Sequence record: PZ386965.1
Direction: 5' to 3' (one strand)
DNA length: 64,000 nt
Source of the DNA: a phage
Shown: positions 21,791 through 54,988 of the stretch, piece after piece
How positions within the stretch are numbered: the first letter of the stretch is position 1
Layout: each line of letters opens with the position of its first letter
The notes under the pieces: generated by a model
What the model was told of the DNA's origin: nothing
The model's database searches: none
Seen by the model: only the letters and a program-made list of their open reading frames with translations
Made by a program: the position numbers and the translations under genes

Positions 21791-21988
21791 ATGTTTAAAC
21801 TTCCATCGTTAATCAACGCTATTAAAGGCAATAAAAAGAAAACTGCTATCGCCGCAATAGTTGTAGGTGGCATTATTTCATGGAACTTCGGGATTGCACC
21901 GTTGTTAGTTGCCCATGGTATTATAGTTCCTTCTGTTCCATTGGATACTGTAGTTGATTTGGCCTTTGCTATTATAGGGCTTGTTTAA
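21791..21988 (+). CDS. small membrane protein, 65 aa (plus strand)
   Basis: strong SD AAGGAG 7 nt upstream; hydrophobic; converges on gene 61 stop. Confidence 0.5.
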   Translation: MFKLPSLINAIKGNKKKTAIAAIVVGGIISWNFGIAPLLVAHGIIVPSVPLDTVVDLAFAIIGLV

Positions 21989-23007
21989 ATCTTCGAATAA
22001 CGAGATAATCTCATTTTAGCATGCAACCCACTTGAAATATTCTGTTTCATATATTCTAAAATTTCTTGTGGTGTTGCATTTTCTTTCATTACCATATCAT
22101 TCACATCCTTTGATCTCCATGGAGCTCGATCCCAGAACATGACACGTTCGCCTGAATCAACTAATCGCTTCATGCGAGCTATAGTATCCGGATGCCTAGG
22201 TTCATTATCCATTACCCATACCCGACGTTCTTTAAATGGTACCACATCTAAATCTATCGAGCCGCCTGTAATAGCGATTGCATTGGGTATGAATAAACTA
22301 TCAATAGGGCCTTCCATTACCCAGACGTCTCCTTCCTTAACACGTTCAACACCATAAATTTTTGTTGCAGACTCAAACGCTTTAATAGTGATATATTTCT
22401 GAGGAGCATCTTTACGAAGTGCACGTCCTTGGAATGACTCGGCCTTCCCATCTTTATTAAAAATAGGAATCACTAAACGCGGTTCAGGAATCTCTTTCTT
22501 ATACGTACCAGGTTGAATCTTGTTGACCAATTTGGGCCATTCTAATGTGAACCATAATCTGTTCCATGATTCTTTAGGAATACACCGAGACTTAACATAT
22601 TTCACAATAGGATGCTCTTCAGGCAACTTGTCCAGACGAGAACAAGACGGCAAAGAATTTATAGTCTTTTTCTCTGGCTCTGGCTTAGCTTCAGGAACCT
22701 TTTCAATCTTTGGTTCCATTCTAGCTTTTTCTTTACGAACTTCCATTAGATACTCGCGATAAAGCTCTTCATCGTACTCTTTTAAGTATCCGGAAATTGT
22801 ATTGTGGTATTGACAGTTATAGCAATGTACATTACCAGGAGTACCACCGTAATACCATCCGCGGGCTTTCATTGCATCTGTCTGAGAGTCGCCACAAACT
22901 GGACAACGAAATGTTAATTTAAATGTGCTTGAATTATTGATTTGTCTAAAACGAGGGAGGTGAGAAAACGCACGATAAGCAAATTCATTATCTATCCATT
23001 CAGCCAT
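21985..23007 (-). CDS. 61: DNA primase
   Basis: 340 aa; zinc ribbon CPVCGD..CYNC and TOPRIM region. Confidence 0.9.
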   Translation of the reverse strand: MAEWIDNEFAYRAFSHLPRFRQINNSSTFKLTFRCPVCGDSQTDAMKARGWYYGGTPGNVHCYNCQYHNTISGYLKEYDEELYREYLMEVRKEKARMEPKIEKVPEAKPEPEKKTINSLPSCSRLDKLPEEHPIVKYVKSRCIPKESWNRLWFTLEWPKLVNKIQPGTYKKEIPEPRLVIPIFNKDGKAESFQGRALRKDAPQKYITIKAFESATKIYGVERVKEGDVWVMEGPIDSLFIPNAIAITGGSIDLDVVPFKERRVWVMDNEPRHPDTIARMKRLVDSGERVMFWDRAPWRSKDVNDMVMKENATPQEILEYMKQNISSGLHAKMRLSRYSKI

Positions 23008-23732: not shown

Positions 23733-24392
23733 TTAACCTCGATTCATAAATGCATTAAATATTTGGTCATCAACAGAAATTTCTAATTCGACTTCAATTG
23801 CTTCAACCTTTTCTTCAGGTGGTAATTCGTATCCACACACTACAATTTTTTCATCGATATCAAAATATACAGAAGCAATACGATTAATGTTACTTTCAGT
23901 TAAGTCTAAATCAACATCAACATCTTTTTGACCTACACTTAAAGGATAACTAATACGGGTTATTTTATTATCTTTAACAAAGAGTCCACCAACATACTCT
24001 GTACTACGTTTGAAGTTTACACGTTTCCGAATTGAAAGATATGATACATCTTTACCGTGAGCTCGGCTCATAGGACATAATGAATAGCTAGAATAAGAGA
24101 TGTCAAATCCTACGCCTTCAACATGTGCTAGAGTATCATGAGTAAACCAATTATAGTCGTATGCTAAATCCATTAAATTATAATATGTGAAAGGCACTGG
24201 ATTAACATCATATGTTGTACCTTTAAAATCTGCCCAGGCAACGATTTCGTTATCTTTAACAATTACAAAAATTATACCAATATGGTATCCGTTATTATTT
24301 TCATTCGGTGTTATATTATAACATTGTGCATTAGGAAATTTACCATATTTAAATGGCGCGTTTTTGTGCATATAATAAATCATATTATTCAC
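23733..24392 (-). CDS. hypothetical protein, 219 aa
   Basis: ORF. Confidence 0.55.
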   Translation of the reverse strand: MNNMIYYMHKNAPFKYGKFPNAQCYNITPNENNNGYHIGIIFVIVKDNEIVAWADFKGTTYDVNPVPFTYYNLMDLAYDYNWFTHDTLAHVEGVGFDISYSSYSLCPMSRAHGKDVSYLSIRKRVNFKRSTEYVGGLFVKDNKITRISYPLSVGQKDVDVDLDLTESNINRIASVYFDIDEKIVVCGYELPPEEKVEAIEVELEISVDDQIFNAFMNRG

Positions 24393-24678
24393 CTGTGATT
24401 TCGGTTACGATATCTTTGTTATCGAAATTAGGGTCACAATACAAAACATAGTTGTACTGCATGATACCGCCAGACTTAAGTTGTTCAACAACTTTATTAA
24501 CCATATTAGGACGGTCTCGTTTAGTGATGTTCATGATATCAGAGAAGATTTGTTGTTCAACATCTTCTTGATTTGCAGTCATTGACCACTCACAGAGGTC
24601 TTTATCATAACCTGCCGTAACTGGAGCCGGTGCACATGATACTGCAAGTAGGATTGCTGCCAATGATAACTTTTTCAT
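24385..24678 (-). CDS. sp: Spackle periplasmic lysozyme inhibitor (superinfection exclusion)
   Basis: 97 aa; signal peptide and AGYDKDLCEWSMTA...LKSGGIMQYNYVLYCD match T4 Sp. Confidence 0.75.
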   Translation of the reverse strand: MKKLSLAAILLAVSCAPAPVTAGYDKDLCEWSMTANQEDVEQQIFSDIMNITKRDRPNMVNKVVEQLKSGGIMQYNYVLYCDPNFDNKDIVTEITGE

Positions 24679-24741
24679 TTTAACTCCTTAGTTGATTTGA
24701 TAGGACTACTATACTATAGTCCATCTATAATGTAAACAAGT

Positions 24742-24990
24742 TTATTCTTTTTCGCGAATAATAATTACTTGTTGAGGCTGCTGAGCCGATTTCTTTTCGG
24801 CAACGATAGACCAAATTAAAGTTCCAATCCAACCAACCATCGTCCAGTTAAAGAGTAAAGATACAAAGAAGATTGCTGTTGTGCTTTTTGTGCCACGAAT
24901 AAGTGCGATTACCCAAGGCAACATGTAAATGATGATTGAACCAATACCTGCGATTAAAACTGCTACTGAACTAGCCACGAATAATTCCAT
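24742..24990 (-). CDS. Imm-like superinfection immunity membrane protein
   Basis: 82 aa, two TM segments, LPWVIALIRG...NWTMVGWIG motif typical of Imm family. Confidence 0.5.
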   Translation of the reverse strand: MELFVASSVAVLIAGIGSIIIYMLPWVIALIRGTKSTTAIFFVSLLFNWTMVGWIGTLIWSIVAEKKSAQQPQQVIIIREKE

Positions 24991-25051
24991 GTTAATTTCC
25001 TCTTGATTTGTTATGTTTATAGTATCTTGGTTTAACTTTGGTGTAAACCAA

Positions 25052-25420
25052 TTAATTAAATTTGTTTAAACGTTCAATACACTGGACGTAGTTATTCGCG
25101 ATTTGTTTCTGGGTAGGCTCTTTACCAGTTGTTTCAACATAGCGAATAAATGCGATTTCAGTAGCCTGTAGACAATGTTCTTTAACGCGTTGTTCTTTTG
25201 ACATAGCTACAGTATCAGAGTCACGATAACGTTGAGCATGAGCATCAGCTTGAATCATTCGATTACCTACAGTAACCGGGTCTTCCACTTCAACTTTAGG
25301 TTGGTTGTACTGTTTAACATTCGGATTGTAAATCAGTTGGCCAACGTTATTAGGGATAAAGCCATGAGCACCACATCCGGTTAATCCAAATACCATTGCT
25401 AAAGCGATTAATTTTTTCAT
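25052..25420 (-). CDS. lipoprotein
   Basis: MKKLIALAMVFGLTGC lipobox at internal Met. Confidence 0.5.
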   Translation of the reverse strand: MKKLIALAMVFGLTGCGAHGFIPNNVGQLIYNPNVKQYNQPKVEVEDPVTVGNRMIQADAHAQRYRDSDTVAMSKEQRVKEHCLQATEIAFIRYVETTGKEPTQKQIANNYVQCIERLNKFN

Positions 25421-25490
25421 TTCAATTTCCTCTATAGTTGATAGGTCTATAGTATCACTACCATAGACCCCTGTAAACAATTATTTTATT

Positions 25491-25631
25491 TTATTCCTCG
25501 TCTTCATGCTCGTAAGCATGTTCTTCAGATTCACGGTCGCAGTCTAAACAAGTCGCATTATCATATGCATCGAAAACAGCTTCGTCTTCATAGACGCTAC
25601 AACCACACACTACACATTCTACTTCTTCCAT
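25491..25631 (-). CDS. small Cys-rich acidic protein
   Basis: CVVCGC...CLDC; start at internal Met. Confidence 0.35.
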   Translation of the reverse strand: MEEVECVVCGCSVYEDEAVFDAYDNATCLDCDRESEEHAYEHEDEE

Positions 25632-25632
25632 T

Positions 25633-25836
25633 TTAGATTTCCTCTTTACGCCAATCGGATTCAAAAACTTTCTTATCATCAACAAATGCTTCAACTAAAG
25701 CTTTATTTACTTCAGCAAATTGAGAAGTGGCCCGTAGGATTTGGTCTTTATCAGACACGTCCATGGTAACTTCTTTGGTAAACATATTCCCATTTTCAAA
25801 CCAACCAATAAACAACACTTTAGCCATATTTTCCAT
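25633..25836 (-). CDS. hypothetical protein, about 67 aa
   Basis: start at internal Met after upstream stop. Confidence 0.4.
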   Translation of the reverse strand: MENMAKVLFIGWFENGNMFTKEVTMDVSDKDQILRATSQFAEVNKALVEAFVDDKKVFESDWRKEEI

Positions 25837-25837
25837 T

Positions 25838-26155
25838 TTAGATTTCCTCACAGAAGGCCCATTCAGCGTGATAAACTGTAGCACCTTTAGTATCATTCAT
25901 TTGAACTACGTCTACCGGAGAAATTACTCGATAGAGACGTGGTTCACCTCCATAAGAGTGTGCTGCTCGTCCTGCATAAATCTTTGCTAAACCGATATCT
26001 TCAGTAAAGAATACACGATCCAAGTTTTTCTTACGTCCAGTTTCAGACAGAACTCCTGTTTCTTCAGGAGGACAAAGCATGTTTTCGATGTTAGCTGAAC
26101 TACTTGAACCGTGATAAAAAATCTTAAATTCTGCTTTACAATCGATGGTTTTCAT
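25838..26155 (-). CDS. hypothetical protein, 105 aa
   Basis: ORF. Confidence 0.5.
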   Translation of the reverse strand: MKTIDCKAEFKIFYHGSSSSANIENMLCPPEETGVLSETGRKKNLDRVFFTEDIGLAKIYAGRAAHSYGGEPRLYRVISPVDVVQMNDTKGATVYHAEWAFCEEI

Positions 26156-26210
26156 TTTGTTCTCCAGTAGTTGATAGGTCTATAATAACACAACTACCGG
26201 AGAAGTAAAC

Positions 26211-26585
26211 TTAAAAATGTAATTTAGATATATCTGCGTTGATTTCGTTTTGGTTTGCGTCGTATGCAATTAAACGAACCGCTTTAGATGGGTCATTCAA
26301 TGCATAGAAATGATGGAACATTGCTCGAACGATATCACCATTTACGAGTTCTACCTGGATAGGAGAACCTTTTTCGAGTTGGAAATGTTCATAAGCTTTG
26401 ATGGTTCGCAGATAATCAAGTTTTTGATTTCCGGCTCCGACAATTTGTACGATACGTTTGCCCATGTTTTCCATACGAGATACAATAGTTTTAGGGGCAA
26501 GAATAACGTAGGTTGCCAGTGGAGAAACTACTTCAACAGTTGTGTTTTCTGTGATTGCAGTAAAAATTGCTTGAGACATATTCAT
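26211..26585 (-). CDS. hypothetical protein, 124 aa
   Basis: ORF with promoter upstream. Confidence 0.5.
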   Translation of the reverse strand: MNMSQAIFTAITENTTVEVVSPLATYVILAPKTIVSRMENMGKRIVQIVGAGNQKLDYLRTIKAYEHFQLEKGSPIQVELVNGDIVRAMFHHFYALNDPSKAVRLIAYDANQNEINADISKLHF

Positions 26586-26650
26586 AATGTTTTCCTCTTG
26601 GTTGGTGTAAGTACATCATATCATGCCTAGAGGAAGATGTAAACCCCGAA

Positions 26651-26668
26651 AGGAGACCGAAGTCTCCT
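26651..26668 (-). terminator. hairpin after gene 41 (possible terminator)
   Basis: GGAGAC-ttcg-GTCTCC; T-run weaker in minus sense, strong in plus sense. Confidence 0.4.
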
Positions 26669-26673
26669 TTTTA

Positions 26674-28116
26674 TTAAAATTTTAACTCGTTGGCTAAGCT
26701 ATCTAGGTCAGCACGTGTTGCTTTGGCTTTACCTACGCGTTCCGTACGATTCACCTCTGCCTGACGCATCTGAGCACCTGCGTTTTCATTTACTGTGTTA
26801 GGTGTGTTCATGCCTTCTTGCTCAATCTCAACCCATTTCTGATTGCCTTTACGTACACCCATCAAGAACTTGTTCCACTTATTCTTATCACCGTATCGTG
26901 ATTTGATTTGTTTGATAAGTTGTTGTTCAGCTTGTGCAAGTTCTTCGGTTTCAATTACGGCCAACATGAAATCTGCCGTTGCTGGTAAACCTGCTGATTC
27001 TGCGATATCACTCATGTTCATGTCTGAAGCATCCCATGCTGCACGTCCTACTTGAGCTGCAGTCCATAGAACTGTTTCAGATTCTACTGCTAATGCACGA
27101 AGTTCTTCTGCGATAGCTTTAACTAATGTGTAGCTATTTTCAGTGTAAACTCTGATACGACAAGACCCACAAATACCTAAGTAATCAACCATGATTACAG
27201 ATGGCACAAAGTTCTTCTTAAGTTTTAACTCATTAAGCAATGCACGAAATGTATTAGCATTAGCTCCACCAGTAGGATACTGTTTAACTACTAAACGTCC
27301 TAATGTGGATTTTGAACGCCATTTTTCCATCTTGGCTTTATATTCAGCATAAGATACGTTACCGTCATCAATATCATCAAGTGATACGTCAAGCATGTTT
27401 GCATCTATACGCTTAGCGCAAACTTCTTCAGCCATTTCCATTGAAATATAAAGAACATTATGGCCTGTTTGAAGATAATCTGCAGCAAGTGAACAAAGGC
27501 CTAAAGATTTACCAACGTTAACACCAGCCATTAAAACATTCAGTGTACCGGTTTCAGCACCACCTTTAGTGATTTTATTCAGAATGTTTAATTTGAACGG
27601 GACCTTACGTGCTTTGTTCAGATAAGAAAGCCAGCGTGCTTCATAGTCTTCCATCCAGTCATGCCCAACATAACTATCAAACGAAATTGAAAGTGCTTGA
27701 CGCATAATATCAGGAATAGCTCCTACGTCAGGCATTTTCTTGTTACGTTGTTCTGGAGGTAGTTCAGCATTAGACTGAATCTCAATGATTTTGGACGTAG
27801 CATTATACATCGCTTTTTGCTGGACATATTTCTCAGTTTCTTTAACCAACCATTCGTGGTCTTCAGGAGTATCAGCCAATTTTTCAATTAGGTCTGAAGT
27901 TCCTTTATATTCGGCTTCAGTTAAAGAACTGTTATCTAAAGCCACCTTTAATGCATTGATAGATGGCATTGCATTATATTCGTTAACGTGGCTCTTTATA
28001 ATTTTAAAGACGTTTTTTGCCGGTCCACGCTCAAAATACTCAGAATCCATATAAGGCCAGACCTTAGAAAAATAAGCCTGGTCATATACTAGATGAGACA
28101 AAATAATTTCTACCAC
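26674..28116 (-). CDS. 41: replicative DNA helicase (DnaB-like)
   Basis: 480 aa; Walker A GVNVGKS; T4 gp41 size. Confidence 0.9.
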   Translation of the reverse strand: MVEIILSHLVYDQAYFSKVWPYMDSEYFERGPAKNVFKIIKSHVNEYNAMPSINALKVALDNSSLTEAEYKGTSDLIEKLADTPEDHEWLVKETEKYVQQKAMYNATSKIIEIQSNAELPPEQRNKKMPDVGAIPDIMRQALSISFDSYVGHDWMEDYEARWLSYLNKARKVPFKLNILNKITKGGAETGTLNVLMAGVNVGKSLGLCSLAADYLQTGHNVLYISMEMAEEVCAKRIDANMLDVSLDDIDDGNVSYAEYKAKMEKWRSKSTLGRLVVKQYPTGGANANTFRALLNELKLKKNFVPSVIMVDYLGICGSCRIRVYTENSYTLVKAIAEELRALAVESETVLWTAAQVGRAAWDASDMNMSDIAESAGLPATADFMLAVIETEELAQAEQQLIKQIKSRYGDKNKWNKFLMGVRKGNQKWVEIEQEGMNTPNTVNENAGAQMRQAEVNRTERVGKAKATRADLDSLANELKF

Positions 28117-30281: not shown

Positions 30282-31181
30282 TTATTCCTCGATTACGACA
30301 TCTTCGTATTTAGGTATATTATACGGCGAAGAAATTAAAGCATTAAAGTAGATGAACTCACCAAGACCTGGATGGAATACTTCTTCAGGATTTTCGAAAT
30401 ATTGAATTTTCGGACGTCCTTTAAGAATTTGATAGTACTCAGTTTTAGTTGGTTTAAAAATTCGAATCAGCGCTTCTTCAGGATACTTATTTCTGTCGAA
30501 GCTATTATTTGGATCGGTTATATAAAGCGCTTGGCCTAATTGAATTGCACATTCAACCACTTGTTCAAAACGATAGCACGGGTCACTAATTCGAAATGGA
30601 TGAAAAATACCATCTAGATGAATAGGAGCCAAATCACCTACAAGACGCTGCATGATGGAAGGACGTATAACTTTCTGCGTTACGATAATCTTATTACCAT
30701 CTGCACCTGCGTTAACCAGCACTTCTTTTTGACGTTCATTCAACACAGTAGTTTGAAGTGAACGATTAACAGACAACATGTCGGTTTTTAAGAATTCATC
30801 AATATAAAAACGTGGTTTATTAGGGTCTGCAGTGATATTGAAATTGAATTCCACATCAAAAGCGCCGCCATAACCAGTGATATCTGTGATTAGAAAATCA
30901 CAATCATAATAATCAATTAATGAATCAACCACAAATTCATTTTCAGTCCAGAAATATTTACGAGTGTTATACGCGTTATCTTTATACCATAATGGAACAA
31001 ACTTAAATTCTGGGAAAAGACGTTCACATTCTTTAATATCAGATGCATTACGTGGATATGTAATCACATCACCCGGATTAGCACGGTGCAAATGAAGTTG
31101 GAAGTTGCCATCCTTAAGGATAGCATACTGTCCAGTTTCATAAGACCGCATACTCAAGATTGGTACGCGGAAAATAGCCAT
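30282..31181 (-). CDS. hypothetical protein, 299 aa (beta-gt locus)
   Basis: ORF immediately downstream of gene 42 where T4 has beta-gt; no motif recognised. Confidence 0.55.
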   Translation of the reverse strand: MAIFRVPILSMRSYETGQYAILKDGNFQLHLHRANPGDVITYPRNASDIKECERLFPEFKFVPLWYKDNAYNTRKYFWTENEFVVDSLIDYYDCDFLITDITGYGGAFDVEFNFNITADPNKPRFYIDEFLKTDMLSVNRSLQTTVLNERQKEVLVNAGADGNKIIVTQKVIRPSIMQRLVGDLAPIHLDGIFHPFRISDPCYRFEQVVECAIQLGQALYITDPNNSFDRNKYPEEALIRIFKPTKTEYYQILKGRPKIQYFENPEEVFHPGLGEFIYFNALISSPYNIPKYEDVVIEE

Positions 31182-31897
31182 TAGTCAAGGAATCCTTTAA
31201 CATAATCAAAATCACGTTCAAACACATGGGCACTTACCATGGTATGAGTATAATCACCAACTTCTACACCGCATTCGTTAGCGATATAATGAAGTAATTT
31301 TCCTTGGAGATAAAAATCCAACTGCATAACAACAGCACAGTTCTGAGAACGCATATGACAGTGGGTATAAAGCTTACCATCACGAATATAATAAGTTACT
31401 GAGTCAGTACATGGATATTCAAGTGTTTCGTCCGAATCAAGCAAAGCCTGATCAGAACTTTCTAGAATTTGGAACACAACTCTTCGAGAGTTAGGTTTTT
31501 CTTTAAGTTCTTTTAGAAGAGTTGGTAATTGGGCCGCAATGCGAGGACCATAGAAAGTGTTGAAGTTCGCCGGCAAAACATCTGATTTTGGTTTAGAAAT
31601 AAATTTAGCGACATTAGGATATGCCTTAAACGCTTCTTCTGCGTTGGTACCACCAGAAATCATAAACTTCCAGAAGTCTTCGGCATATTCATAAGAGATG
31701 CGGTTAATACGTGGGTCGGTCATTTTGAATGATGATGGAGTGTCAACAACTACTGTCATAGACCCAATTTCATTACAACGTCCAATACGAGAATCAGTTA
31801 CGAATTCCGGGTTTTCTAAAATTTCACGATTGACTGCTTTAAACGCGGTTTGAAAATCTGCGGCTTTGATATATTTCATTGTGTTATGTTTTCCCAT
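31181..31897 (-). CDS. 42: dCMP hydroxymethylase (thymidylate-synthase fold)
   Basis: 238 aa; CTDSVTYYIRD...MRSQN block aligns with T4 gp42 CTNTVQYLIRD...MRSND. Confidence 0.8.
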   Translation of the reverse strand: MGKHNTMKYIKAADFQTAFKAVNREILENPEFVTDSRIGRCNEIGSMTVVVDTPSSFKMTDPRINRISYEYAEDFWKFMISGGTNAEEAFKAYPNVAKFISKPKSDVLPANFNTFYGPRIAAQLPTLLKELKEKPNSRRVVFQILESSDQALLDSDETLEYPCTDSVTYYIRDGKLYTHCHMRSQNCAVVMQLDFYLQGKLLHYIANECGVEVGDYTHTMVSAHVFERDFDYVKGFLD

Positions 31898-35504: not shown

Positions 35505-35648
35505 CTAGTTAAAGCATTCATACTTTGCTTGTAGTCCAATCATAATCCATCCGATTATAAGAGTCGGAATCATTACTGGAGCCGTTAAGCTCCAGTAGAT
35601 AGTCATGACAAGCATCAATAGTAAAAGTCCTATTGTTATTGCTTTCAT
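35505..35648 (-). CDS. small membrane protein, 47 aa
   Basis: ATGA overlap with SIS gene stop; hydrophobic. Confidence 0.35.
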   Translation of the reverse strand: MKAITIGLLLLMLVMTIYWSLTAPVMIPTLIIGWIMIGLQAKYECFN

Positions 35649-36320: not shown

Positions 36321-39032
36321 TCAAAAATCGAACATATCGAACAGAGATGCTTTCTTCTCGTAATCGAGTTTCGCTGCTGATGTGAATCCTTCAAGTGGTT
36401 TAATAAATGTCTTCTCAAGGAGAACAGTGTAGTCCATCCAATGAAGTACGTCGTCTTTAATTAAATCTGTGATTTCAGTACCAGAAGGCCATGCGATACA
36501 TTTATCACCGAATGGGTTTCCTTCACGTAAAGGCAGAACATATACTTTTTCACCTTCTACAACTTGTGGAGCATCAATATTACCTTTGATAGCCCGGTTA
36601 TACGTCAGAATTCCACGAATATGGAACGGACATTTAGGGCCAGGGAATCCACCAACATCATATTTAGCAATGTTATTCGCAGAAGATACCGACGCGATGC
36701 TAATATAATTCAATTGACGGAATTCTTTTTCAAACTCTTTAAAATATTCTTGTAATGATTCTTCACCTTCTTGAAGCATACGACGAATACATTCCTTAAG
36801 AGCTTTCTGTACTGCTTTAGGAGTCGAAGATTTCTGAGTCTCGAGACCCATGATTTTGAGTTTAGGCTCAGCGTATCTGGTTCCTTCCATATCCCACACG
36901 TTTAATGCATAACGTTTCTTACCAGTCCAAAATCCGCCAATACCTTTAGAACCGAGCGGAGGGCCAGCAATAGCTTCTCGGTCCATGAACATTAAGTGTT
37001 GTTTATTGTTCATGTATTCACACATTTCACGGAAACCTCTATCAATAGCTGGTTCCATACGTTCACGTGCAAACTTATCTAAGAAGTCTACCCAATGGTT
37101 AGTATCACGGAATTTAGATTCACCAACCTTATCAATAATTTTATCTGCAGATACGTAAATAGAGTCTGTATCACCATAAAGAACGAAAGCTTCACCTTCT
37201 GTACCACAAACTTCATTCAGATATTCATTAACTTTACGTTCAATCCACTGTAAAGCCATTTGTCCGAATGTTGTGATTGCAGTAGCATTACGCAAATCAT
37301 AATAACGGAACCAGACGTTGCCAAGTGCACCATAAAGTGAGTTGATAAGCAATTTACGGTTAATTTGTGCAGTCATACCTGCAACTTCAGTACGTTGAGC
37401 TCTAAACAACATTTCATTAAGAGATTTAGCAGACAACTTTTTAATCTTTTCTTTAATCTCATCACTGAAGTCGAAACGATAATCAACATCTAATGGTTCG
37501 TCAACAGAAAGATTAGGATTATGCAATGCCTCTTTAATTATTTCACCGTTACGTTGAGCTGCAAGCATGTAACCTTTATGTTCTTTACGTTGATTAAAGA
37601 CCTTAGTGATTTCAGTTGGAACTACACCATCACGATCTTTATAATACATCATGCCGTTAGGAGAACAACTGTACACATCTGAAGGACGTTCAGCGATTGC
37701 GTTAATATAATCATGCAATGGAGCTACTTTAAACGTTCCTGCTATTGTTTCCGGGCTAATATTCACTTGGCGAATAATACTTGGATACAGAGATGTAAGG
37801 TCGAAACTCATTACATATTTGTATCGATTTGGAATAGGTTCCTTAACAAAAGCGCCAGGATAAGGTTGAACCGGGTGAGAACGACCTTGTGGAATCACCT
37901 TGTTCTGCTCTTTAAGGCTATTAAAAATAATAGCATCCCATGTTTTAATTGGGCTAAACACAGATTGAATCTGTATCTTAGCATAATAACCCATGTCCAA
38001 ACTCAAGTTGATGAACTGACGCTTAGCATCAATTTGCAATACACGATACACGTCGATAATGTTATAAGAAATATATCGTTGGTGATTGCTTTCACGAAGC
38101 TTAGAAATAGGGCCGTCATATTTCAGTTTACCAACGTTCAATTCAAATTCTGAAATGTAATCCAGAGAATACGACGGTTGATTGGTAAAAGAGAATTTTT
38201 TGTAAAGGTCGATATAATCAAGAACAGAGATACCGAACAATGTAATGATTTCACGAGAACCATACATGTTTTCGATAACTTTAACACGAGTTTTACGATG
38301 TGGTGATAAACGTTTCGCAGTAGATTCGCCAAAAATATTCTTGATTCTGTTATACACATATGGAATATCAAATGACTCAACGTTCCATCCAGTCAAAATG
38401 ACAGGAGTTTTCTGTTGCCAGAAGTTGAGATATTCCATCAACAATTCTTTTTCGTTATCGAACGGCATATAAATGATTTTATCGATAATTTCAGATGGAA
38501 CTTCATCACCACCTTGTTCTTGAAGCTTAGCCGCAATTTCGATAGACCATTCTTCTACATTACCATACGGAGAATTCAATAGATCAAATACGTAGAACCT
38601 GTCGTCAATTGAGTCATAATGGGTGATAGCATCAATCGGATGTTTTGCTTGTGACGGCTCAGGGAACCCATCCGGAGATGTTACTTCGATGTCGAAGTTA
38701 GCCACACGAATTTTTGTATGGTCGTATTTGATTTCATAGTTATAAGTGTCAGACAAATACGCCAATTTGAAATCGTCCATGCCAAGTGCTTCAAGTCCGA
38801 TATCTTCCATGCGTTTAATCCATTGGGAGGCATCACGCATATTAGCGAACAACTTACGAGTACACGGCTTACCGTAGATATCGAAATATTTCGTAGCCTG
38901 ACTTTCTGGACAATGAGCAAACAGTGATGGTTTATATTCTACTTCACGAGTACGTTCACGGCCATTAGAATCGATGTAACGTTCAAAAATTGAATCACCA
39001 ATCTGTTCAACCGTTAAGTAAAATTCTTTCAT
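36321..39032 (-). CDS. 43: DNA polymerase (family B), RB69-type
   Basis: 903 aa; exo motifs FDIEV, pol motifs DTDS and KKRY; sequence essentially that of RB69 gp43 as I recall it. Confidence 0.95.
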   Translation of the reverse strand: MKEFYLTVEQIGDSIFERYIDSNGRERTREVEYKPSLFAHCPESQATKYFDIYGKPCTRKLFANMRDASQWIKRMEDIGLEALGMDDFKLAYLSDTYNYEIKYDHTKIRVANFDIEVTSPDGFPEPSQAKHPIDAITHYDSIDDRFYVFDLLNSPYGNVEEWSIEIAAKLQEQGGDEVPSEIIDKIIYMPFDNEKELLMEYLNFWQQKTPVILTGWNVESFDIPYVYNRIKNIFGESTAKRLSPHRKTRVKVIENMYGSREIITLFGISVLDYIDLYKKFSFTNQPSYSLDYISEFELNVGKLKYDGPISKLRESNHQRYISYNIIDVYRVLQIDAKRQFINLSLDMGYYAKIQIQSVFSPIKTWDAIIFNSLKEQNKVIPQGRSHPVQPYPGAFVKEPIPNRYKYVMSFDLTSLYPSIIRQVNISPETIAGTFKVAPLHDYINAIAERPSDVYSCSPNGMMYYKDRDGVVPTEITKVFNQRKEHKGYMLAAQRNGEIIKEALHNPNLSVDEPLDVDYRFDFSDEIKEKIKKLSAKSLNEMLFRAQRTEVAGMTAQINRKLLINSLYGALGNVWFRYYDLRNATAITTFGQMALQWIERKVNEYLNEVCGTEGEAFVLYGDTDSIYVSADKIIDKVGESKFRDTNHWVDFLDKFARERMEPAIDRGFREMCEYMNNKQHLMFMDREAIAGPPLGSKGIGGFWTGKKRYALNVWDMEGTRYAEPKLKIMGLETQKSSTPKAVQKALKECIRRMLQEGEESLQEYFKEFEKEFRQLNYISIASVSSANNIAKYDVGGFPGPKCPFHIRGILTYNRAIKGNIDAPQVVEGEKVYVLPLREGNPFGDKCIAWPSGTEITDLIKDDVLHWMDYTVLLEKTFIKPLEGFTSAAKLDYEKKASLFDMFDF

Positions 39033-39113
39033 TTAATTTCCTTTAGACGAGTTATTGTCTTTTGTTTGTTGATGAACTTATTATACTCCAAATGGGACCG
39101 AAGTCCCATTGCT

Positions 39114-39491
39114 TTAATTACCAATTGTATATTTTGCTTTCAAAGTCCAGTCATCTTTCTGTTTAAAAGAGATAACACGGAAGTTATTAGTCAGGCCAAA
39201 CAGATCTTCACGAGCAGAGTCTTCAATAACAATTAATCCCCAGTCTTCAAGCAACTGAGCAATCGAATCACGTCGCTGATAGTCTTCACCATCAATATCA
39301 ACCTGACGTCCATCCATACGCAACATTTCTTTAAAGTGGACGATATAATACTTACCTTGCTTTTGGAGGATATGACAAGACTGGTAAAGGACTTTATCCT
39401 TGTTATTAGCGATGCCCATACGAGTCAAAGTCTCTTTGACTTTCAGAAAATCTTCAGGGTTCTTCAATTTAATTTCAATCATTTTTACCAT
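39114..39491 (-). CDS. regA: RegA translational repressor
   Basis: [41 protein letters not shown] matches T4 RegA. Confidence 0.85.
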
Positions 39492-54186: not shown

Positions 54187-54366
54187 TTAGTAAACGTTAT
54201 AAAAGTCTCGATGGAAACGCTTATACTGACGAATCATTCTTTTAGTAGGACGAGTTTCTGAAATAATTGAAGTCCTCATATTTGGATTGTTTGGGGCCCC
54301 AATCATAATAAATTTCCAAGATTTTTGACCGTTTGTTCTTTCGCCAAAAAATAACGCAGTTTTCAT
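54187..54366 (-). CDS. small basic protein, 59 aa (RPTKR...FY family)
   Basis: shares ...TRPTKR..R..KR.HR.FY C-terminus with ORF 54791..54988. Confidence 0.35.
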   Translation of the reverse strand: MKTALFFGERTNGQKSWKFIMIGAPNNPNMRTSIISETRPTKRMIRQYKRFHRDFYNVY

Positions 54367-54790: not shown

Positions 54791-54988
54791 TCAATATTCT
54801 CTATAAAAGTTACGATGAGAACGTTTAGCTTTGCGAAGCTGACGTTTAGTAGGACGAACTGTAAATGGTTGTCCAGAGAAAAAATTCGGATCGGTTTTAA
54901 TAAGCAAACACCAATCATGCTTGCCATTTTTTAATAAACGGTACAATAATTTAACTTGCATAATAATCTCTTCCCATTTCCATATCAA
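54791..54988 (-). CDS. small basic protein, 65 aa (RPTKR...FY family)
   Basis: paralog of 54187..54366. Confidence 0.35.
   Translation of the reverse strand: MIWKWEEIIMQVKLLYRLLKNGKHDWCLLIKTDPNFFSGQPFTVRPTKRQLRKAKRSHRNFYREY

Follow-up and report, generated by a model that had tools for sequence, protein, structure and literature searches.

The window analysed here is a stretch of 64,000 nts of phage DNA. Megablast found it closest to RB69-type Mosigvirus phages (LF82-4, Shf125875, phage 55 and others; 99.1-99.4% identity), and by this identity the source phage is a T4-like, RB69-type Mosigvirus. At 24385-25420 the window carries three ORFs, all on the minus strand and read in the order imm.1, imm, sp. 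They belong to a run of early genes with the following members, given in the direction of transcription:

26674-28116, minus strand: helicase gene 41, first gene of the run
26211-26585, minus strand: 124-aa ORF
25838-26155, minus strand: 105-aa ORF
25633-25839, minus strand: dmd (PF17587)
25491-25631, minus strand: 46-aa ORF with CxxC (phrog_13952, E=2.5e-29)
25052-25420, minus strand: imm.1, a 122-aa lipoprotein with an ATG start (PF17578)
24742-24990, minus strand: imm, 82 aa (PF14373, phrog_1039)
24385-24678, minus strand: sp, 97 aa (PF25676)
23733-24383, minus strand: adfA (gene 61.2; PF23813, E=5.6e-118)
between adfA and gene 61: two small ORFs
21985-23007, minus strand: primase gene 61, end of the run

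An earlier note on this DNA had taken the trio for a periplasmic lysozyme inhibitor (Sp), an 82-aa Imm-family protein with two transmembrane segments and a lipobox lipoprotein beside it. It listed them against the direction of transcription. All three readings held up, with family matches well above chance level. For Sp, the match to PF25676 (T4_Spackle) covers residues 1-96 of 96 (E=1.1e-42, 145 bits vs a cut-off of 27), and the alignment with T4 Sp is ungapped over all 97 residues with 66% identity. The protein also matches the solved Spackle structures (PDB 6X6O, 6XC1 and 7CN6). In Spackle, Cys29 and Cys81 form a disulfide, and the gp5 lysozyme is contacted by Ser32-Ala35 (main chain), Gln37 and Asn76 (PMC7677548). 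The Cys29/Cys81 pair is kept in the present protein, the contact residues (Ser32-Met33-Thr34-Ala35, Gln37 and Asn76) are identical to those of T4 Sp, and a hydrophobic N-terminus (residues 4-24) would serve as the export signal. On these alignments, the sp product is clearly an orthologue of T4 Spackle, which acts in the periplasm and blocks the gp5 lysozyme of an incoming phage (PMC7677548).

The 82-aa protein has two hydrophobic segments and matches PF14373 (Imm_superinfect) over profile positions 1-42 of 42 (E=1.8e-15, 56.9 bits vs a cut-off of 27.9), as well as phrog_1039, "immunity to superinfection" (E=1.2e-30). When aligned with T4 Imm (~83 aa), it is 64% identical over residues 1-82 with one gap (E=4e-37), and the C-terminal tail QVIIIREKE is the same in both. 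By these matches it is a full-length orthologue of T4 Imm, which is more than the "Imm-like" protein first claimed. Imm is an inner-membrane protein that blocks genome transfer (PMC6832632). PF14373 is a broad family that includes distant members in unrelated phages without a partner lipoprotein, such as a 99-aa protein of the 45-kb Klebsiella phage KP591P3, and the 82-aa protein could be read as one more such member, with another role in the membrane, in a phage that has lost its true imm. We consider this highly improbable in view of the full-length identity and shared tail, the persisting pairing with an Imm.1 homologue, the absence of any other Imm-family gene from the window and the RB69 copy, which is 100% identical and annotated as imm. 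A sequence similarity search of the 64-kb window detected no second copy of imm, imm.1 or sp; the best extra match, at 39055-39144 (E=0.06-0.4), was taken as chance. T4 gene 61.4 is found in the equivalent slot next to sp and was also considered as a counterpart to the 82-aa ORF; the idea was rejected, as the 61.4 product is soluble, belongs to DUF7279 and shows no similarity. A PDB sequence search with Imm yielded no solved relative.

The third protein possesses a canonical lipobox, LTGC, with Cys16 and a Gly at position +2. The residue that follows the lipobox Cys predicts where a lipoprotein is located (the +2 rule), so that Imm.1, with its Gly, is predicted to be an outer-membrane lipoprotein. 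It scores 37.3 bits against PF17578 (DUF5481, cut-off 27), to be compared with 239 bits for T4 Imm.1, and BLASTP aligns it with T4 Imm.1 over 125 columns at 32% identity (E=1e-18). Its Cys83 and Cys114 align with Cys89 and Cys119 of the T4 protein, and Cys114 is invariant in an alignment of 16 sequences. On this evidence, the lipoprotein is a homologue of T4 Imm.1, the ancestral neighbour of Imm. A structure model based on the 16 sequences, with a modest mean pLDDT of 62, suggests a three-helix bundle (48-120) that contains Cys83 and Cys114 and is preceded by a disordered tether; a Foldseek search of PDB with this model found no fold relative at E<2. Imm.1 and Sp are both small, helical, disulfide-containing periplasmic proteins. 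The idea that Imm.1 is a diverged Sp paralogue was discarded after a profile comparison, which gave a probability of 4% and aligned only the signal peptides.

In some records (e.g., phage 55), imm.1 is started at an upstream TTG (region 25421-25480), which results in a protein of 142 aa. The ATG at 25420 is the better start, as in RB69: a ribosome-binding site (GAGGAAA) precedes it and the signal peptide begins at Met1, whereas the extension from the TTG would cross a promoter cassette (described below). Between T4 and the present phage, Imm.1 is 32-33% identical, compared with 64-66% for Imm and Sp. For a member of a conserved gene pair, its evolution has been unusually fast (the T4 copy is located at L002 9637-10014). 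The annotations examined here assign Imm.1 no function, and a literature search on the function of imm.1 and on the imm/sp rearrangement returned nothing relevant within the library searched.

The same locus is found in RB69 (NC_004928, RB69p035-037), with sp, imm and imm.1 in the same order and orientation and with the same flanks (gp61.2/AdfA and, at the opposite end, the dmd region). The Imm proteins of the two phages are 100% identical and the Sp proteins 99%. Nothing of substance differs; the ORF between imm.1 and dmd has 46 aa with CxxC pair(s) here, whereas a 70-aa "gp61.4" is annotated in RB69. The trio is thus already known, as sp, imm and imm.1 are named in this order in the RB69 reference annotation. 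Approximately 143 public records share the 3-kb region with at least 95% identity. For Imm, 154 records have at least 95% identity and ~500 have 60-80%; for Imm.1, 155 have at least 95% and ~500 are near 33%, and the two sets of counts run parallel across Mosigvirus and Tequatrovirus. Considering the RB69 naming and these ~140-155 records, the finding is correct but ordinary, namely known biology in a lineage-specific gene order. It carries little weight as a discovery, with the genes, their T4 functions and the RB69-type order all present in public annotation.

As in T4, the three genes are early genes on the same strand, they encode orthologous proteins, and sp is placed in the same way with respect to gene 61.2 and the primase gene, 61. 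The T4 order is 43, imm.1, imm, 42, and sp is located ~6 kb away, next to the unrelated gene 61.4 (DUF7279); the statement in the earlier note that T4 imm lies between 42 and 43 was confirmed in the T4 genome. The imm.1-imm junction differs as well: in T4, 11 nt separate imm.1 from the start of imm, which lacks a separate promoter, whereas here imm.1 lies 61 nt upstream of imm and a full cassette separates the pair. The distance between sp and imm is 63 bp. The features of the window that correspond to the T4 imm locus are as follows:

31181-31897: gene 42
35505-35648, minus strand: 47-aa ORF MKAITIGLLLLMLVMTIYWSLTAPVMIPTLIIGWIMIGLQAKYECFN, strongly hydrophobic, right after the arabinose-5-phosphate isomerase gene with an ATGA overlap
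36321-39032: gene 43 (DNA polymerase)

Between genes 42 and 43, the window holds a 79-aa ORF, a U32-like gene, an isomerase-like gene, a gene for a 561-aa nucleotidyltransferase/kinase and the SIS-type arabinose-5-phosphate isomerase gene, in line with the claim that a sugar cassette fills the slot of T4 imm: arabinose-type sugar-nucleotide genes are indeed what lies there. No imm is present in this interval of the window, the gene being located between imm.1 and sp. In RB69, the isomerase (ORF055c) and the 561-aa protein (ORF53_52c) have been proposed as suppliers of UDP-arabinose for arabinosyl-hydroxymethylcytosine (PMC6024577).

Other T4-like genera were sampled through tblastn matches to Imm, with eight sampled genera in all. 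The imm gene is found immediately downstream of gene 43 in T4, Gaprivervirus RZ, Dhaka-like fDHCT2, Moonvirus Merlin, Serratia phage 4S and Jiaodavirus JD18; Muldoonvirus PS2 also has it in this interval, i.e., between the polymerase gene and gene 42. The T4-type position between 43 and 42 is a feature of synteny and not a trait of the protein family. We examined the notion that the sugar cassette necessarily displaced imm and rejected it: both 4S and fDHCT2 hold arabinose-type genes together with imm next to gene 43, and the cassette therefore need not have been the cause. In every sampled T4-like genus outside Mosigvirus, an Imm.1-type lipoprotein gene is found at most ~150 nt from imm, upstream of it in Merlin, 4S, JD18, PS2 and T4 (gaps of -4 to 32 nt) and downstream in RZ and fDHCT2. 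The lipoproteins of these genera share three features, namely a lipobox of the form L[AST]GC, the motif VG[QK] and a C-terminal cysteine. What moved was the imm.1-imm pair, and not a lone imm that joined an unrelated lipoprotein gene.

A trace of the move has been left near gene 43. A hydrophobic ORF of 47-49 aa directly follows imm in T4 (with an ATGA overlap), RZ and fDHCT2. The 47-aa ORF of the window is 52-60% identical to the post-imm ORFs of T4, RZ and fDHCT2. The T4 ORF is without annotation in the T4 RefSeq record, and the RB69 counterpart is ORF054c (RB69ORF054c), which carries the note "similar to T4 42-imm intercistronic region". This ORF, which probably encodes a genuine small membrane protein belonging to the imm cluster, marks the former imm site. 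Taken together, the left-behind ORF and the outgroup pattern support a departure of imm.1-imm from the gene 43 locus within the Mosigvirus lineage; this polarity is a parsimony argument over the eight sampled genera, joined by the small ORF.

Each gene of the trio is preceded by a spacer with a putative early promoter:

25421-25490, minus strand: imm.1 spacer, GTTTACA-17-TACTAT at 25478-25449, with a 12-bp stem-loop over the -10 box
24991-25051, minus strand: imm spacer, GTTTACA-17-TACTAT at 25048-25019
24679-24741, minus strand: sp spacer, GTTTACA-17-TATAGT at 24737-24708, with a stem-loop over the -10 box and the Shine-Dalgarno sequence AAGGAG

These early promoter cassettes are consensus matches obtained by a promoter scan. 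The spacers that precede the 124-aa ORF, the 105-aa ORF, imm.1, imm and sp, five in all, can be aligned as copies of a single unit, which comprises a stop codon, GTTTAC, 17 nt, TAnnnT, a CCTATCAA-like stretch, GAGGAAA and ATG. In the 64-kb window, GTTTAC-N16-18-TANNNT occurs 22 times vs 2.95 expected, and 21 of these sites are on the minus strand, i.e., the transcribed one. Stem-loops over the -10 box are significant in four of the five cassettes (z from -2.4 to -4.3) and weak upstream of imm (z=-1.3). The predicted folds have -15 kcal/mol (z=-2.6) for the sp spacer and -17.9 kcal/mol (z=-3.3) for the imm.1 spacer, and the imm.1 spacer can be aligned with the promoter region that precedes imm.1 in T4. 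Between imm.1, imm and sp, the scan detected nothing resembling a terminator, so that read-through transcripts are also likely. The five near-identical cassettes fall within 2 kb (24679-26673), where the GTTTAC-17-TAnnnT motif is more densely clustered than anywhere else in the window.

In RB49 and phi1, small early genes are excised and shuffled, with mini-circles, through promoter-early-stem-loop (PeSL) cassettes (Arbiol et al. 2010, PMC2839356). These are intergenic repeats in which a stop codon is followed by a sigma-70-like early promoter, a stem-loop that overlaps the -10 box, and an ATG with its Shine-Dalgarno sequence. The cassettes of the window resemble them clearly in the promoter part and, in four out of five cases, in a significant stem-loop; they likewise flank small, non-essential early genes of a variable region. 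They differ in that their stems are A/T-rich, not of the GGGG...CCCC type. They are candidate PeSL-like units.

The explanation that we favour, and hold to be very probably correct, is that the three genes are orthologous to imm.1, imm and sp of T4 and differ from them in position alone, and that the imm.1-imm pair moved away from the gene 43 locus, most likely by way of the cassettes. In the ancestral order, gene 43 would have been followed by imm with its Imm.1-type lipoprotein gene and, in some genera, the small membrane ORF. The pair would then, within the Mosigvirus lineage, have come to lie between the dmd region and sp, and the old site would now be represented by the arabinose-5-phosphate isomerase gene and, behind it, the left-behind small ORF. 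The move most likely took place by recombination between repeated early promoter/stem-loop cassettes flanking small early genes, a route suggested by analogy with the PeSL cassettes of RB49/phi1 (PMC2839356). Orthology with T4 and the work on T4 (PMC7677548, PMC6832632) suggest how exclusion would proceed: all three genes would be expressed early after infection; Sp would be exported to the periplasm and bind gp5, the tail-spike protein of the incoming phage, at its lysozyme domain, preventing digestion of the cell wall; Imm, in the inner membrane, would stop the incoming DNA from reaching the cytoplasm; and the Imm.1 lipoprotein would probably be anchored on the periplasmic side of the outer membrane. 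The locus neatly illustrates the reshuffling of small early genes among promoter cassettes in T4-type phages, with the old site still marked.

The earlier note had called the trio a consolidated superinfection-exclusion module. The adjacency is real; a functional unit is less apparent, given that each gene has its own early-type promoter. One could nevertheless suppose that the adjacency has been selected, with linkage keeping co-adapted envelope proteins together through recombination between co-infecting T4-like phages, and that the trio acts as a single trans-envelope barrier (lipoprotein in the outer membrane, Sp in the periplasm and Imm in the inner membrane). The predicted locations of the three proteins do span the envelope, the arrangement is fixed over the ~140-155 Mosigvirus-type records at the 95% level, and the lipoprotein gene is linked to imm in eight out of eight sampled genera, often with overlapping or nearly abutting reading frames. 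Fixation within one genus would, however, also follow from shared ancestry alone, and the separate promoters and the wider imm.1-imm spacer (61 nt vs 11 nt in T4) indicate a looser coupling. T4 functions with imm and sp ~6 kb apart, and the two genes have been brought together in no other sampled lineage. Moreover, plasmid-borne T4 Imm alone reportedly gives exclusion, with incomplete DNA ejection (Lu and Henning, 1989). As a whole, selected consolidation together with the trans-envelope barrier is quite unlikely, and the adjacency to sp may be neutral.

A more limited possibility concerns imm.1 itself. The constant adjacency to imm in the eight sampled genera, with frames that overlap or abut, is what would suggest that Imm has a so far unrecognised functional partner in the Imm.1-type lipoprotein, and the roughly twofold faster divergence of Imm.1 relative to Imm and Sp would be expected if it meets a rapidly evolving target, e.g., the incoming tail tip. 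If so, imm.1 and imm (with the 47-49-aa membrane ORF in some genera) would form a conserved envelope-exclusion cluster that has merely been brought beside sp in Mosigvirus. We regard the partnership as a tentative idea, on the unlikely side. The mechanism of Imm is poorly understood, and its constant neighbour Imm.1 offers a useful testable question; the linkage and the faster divergence mean that a role in exclusion deserves a simple genetic test.

Some further observations were made on the neighbouring genes. The trio is bordered by counter-defence genes, with adfA (anti-DarT factor A) on one side and dmd, an antitoxin against RnlA/LsoA, on the other. With these two genes as flanks, the gene 41-61 interval is densely packed with early genes for competition and counter-defence. 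The 46-aa CxxC ORF sits in the slot of T4 gene 61.4 and has no similarity to it; a tblastn search of the window with T4 61.4 gave only weak matches (54812-54865 and 54208-54252). The 105-aa ORF (25838-26155) is absent from T4, belongs to phrog_2110 and has no sequence match in PDB. It has a weak Pfam match to the rifampin ADP-ribosyltransferase Arr (E=0.22) and, by eye, FYHGS, VFFTED and LYRV-type motifs in common with Arr. It could be a mini ADP-ribosyltransferase-like protein encoded near the anti-DarT gene adfA.
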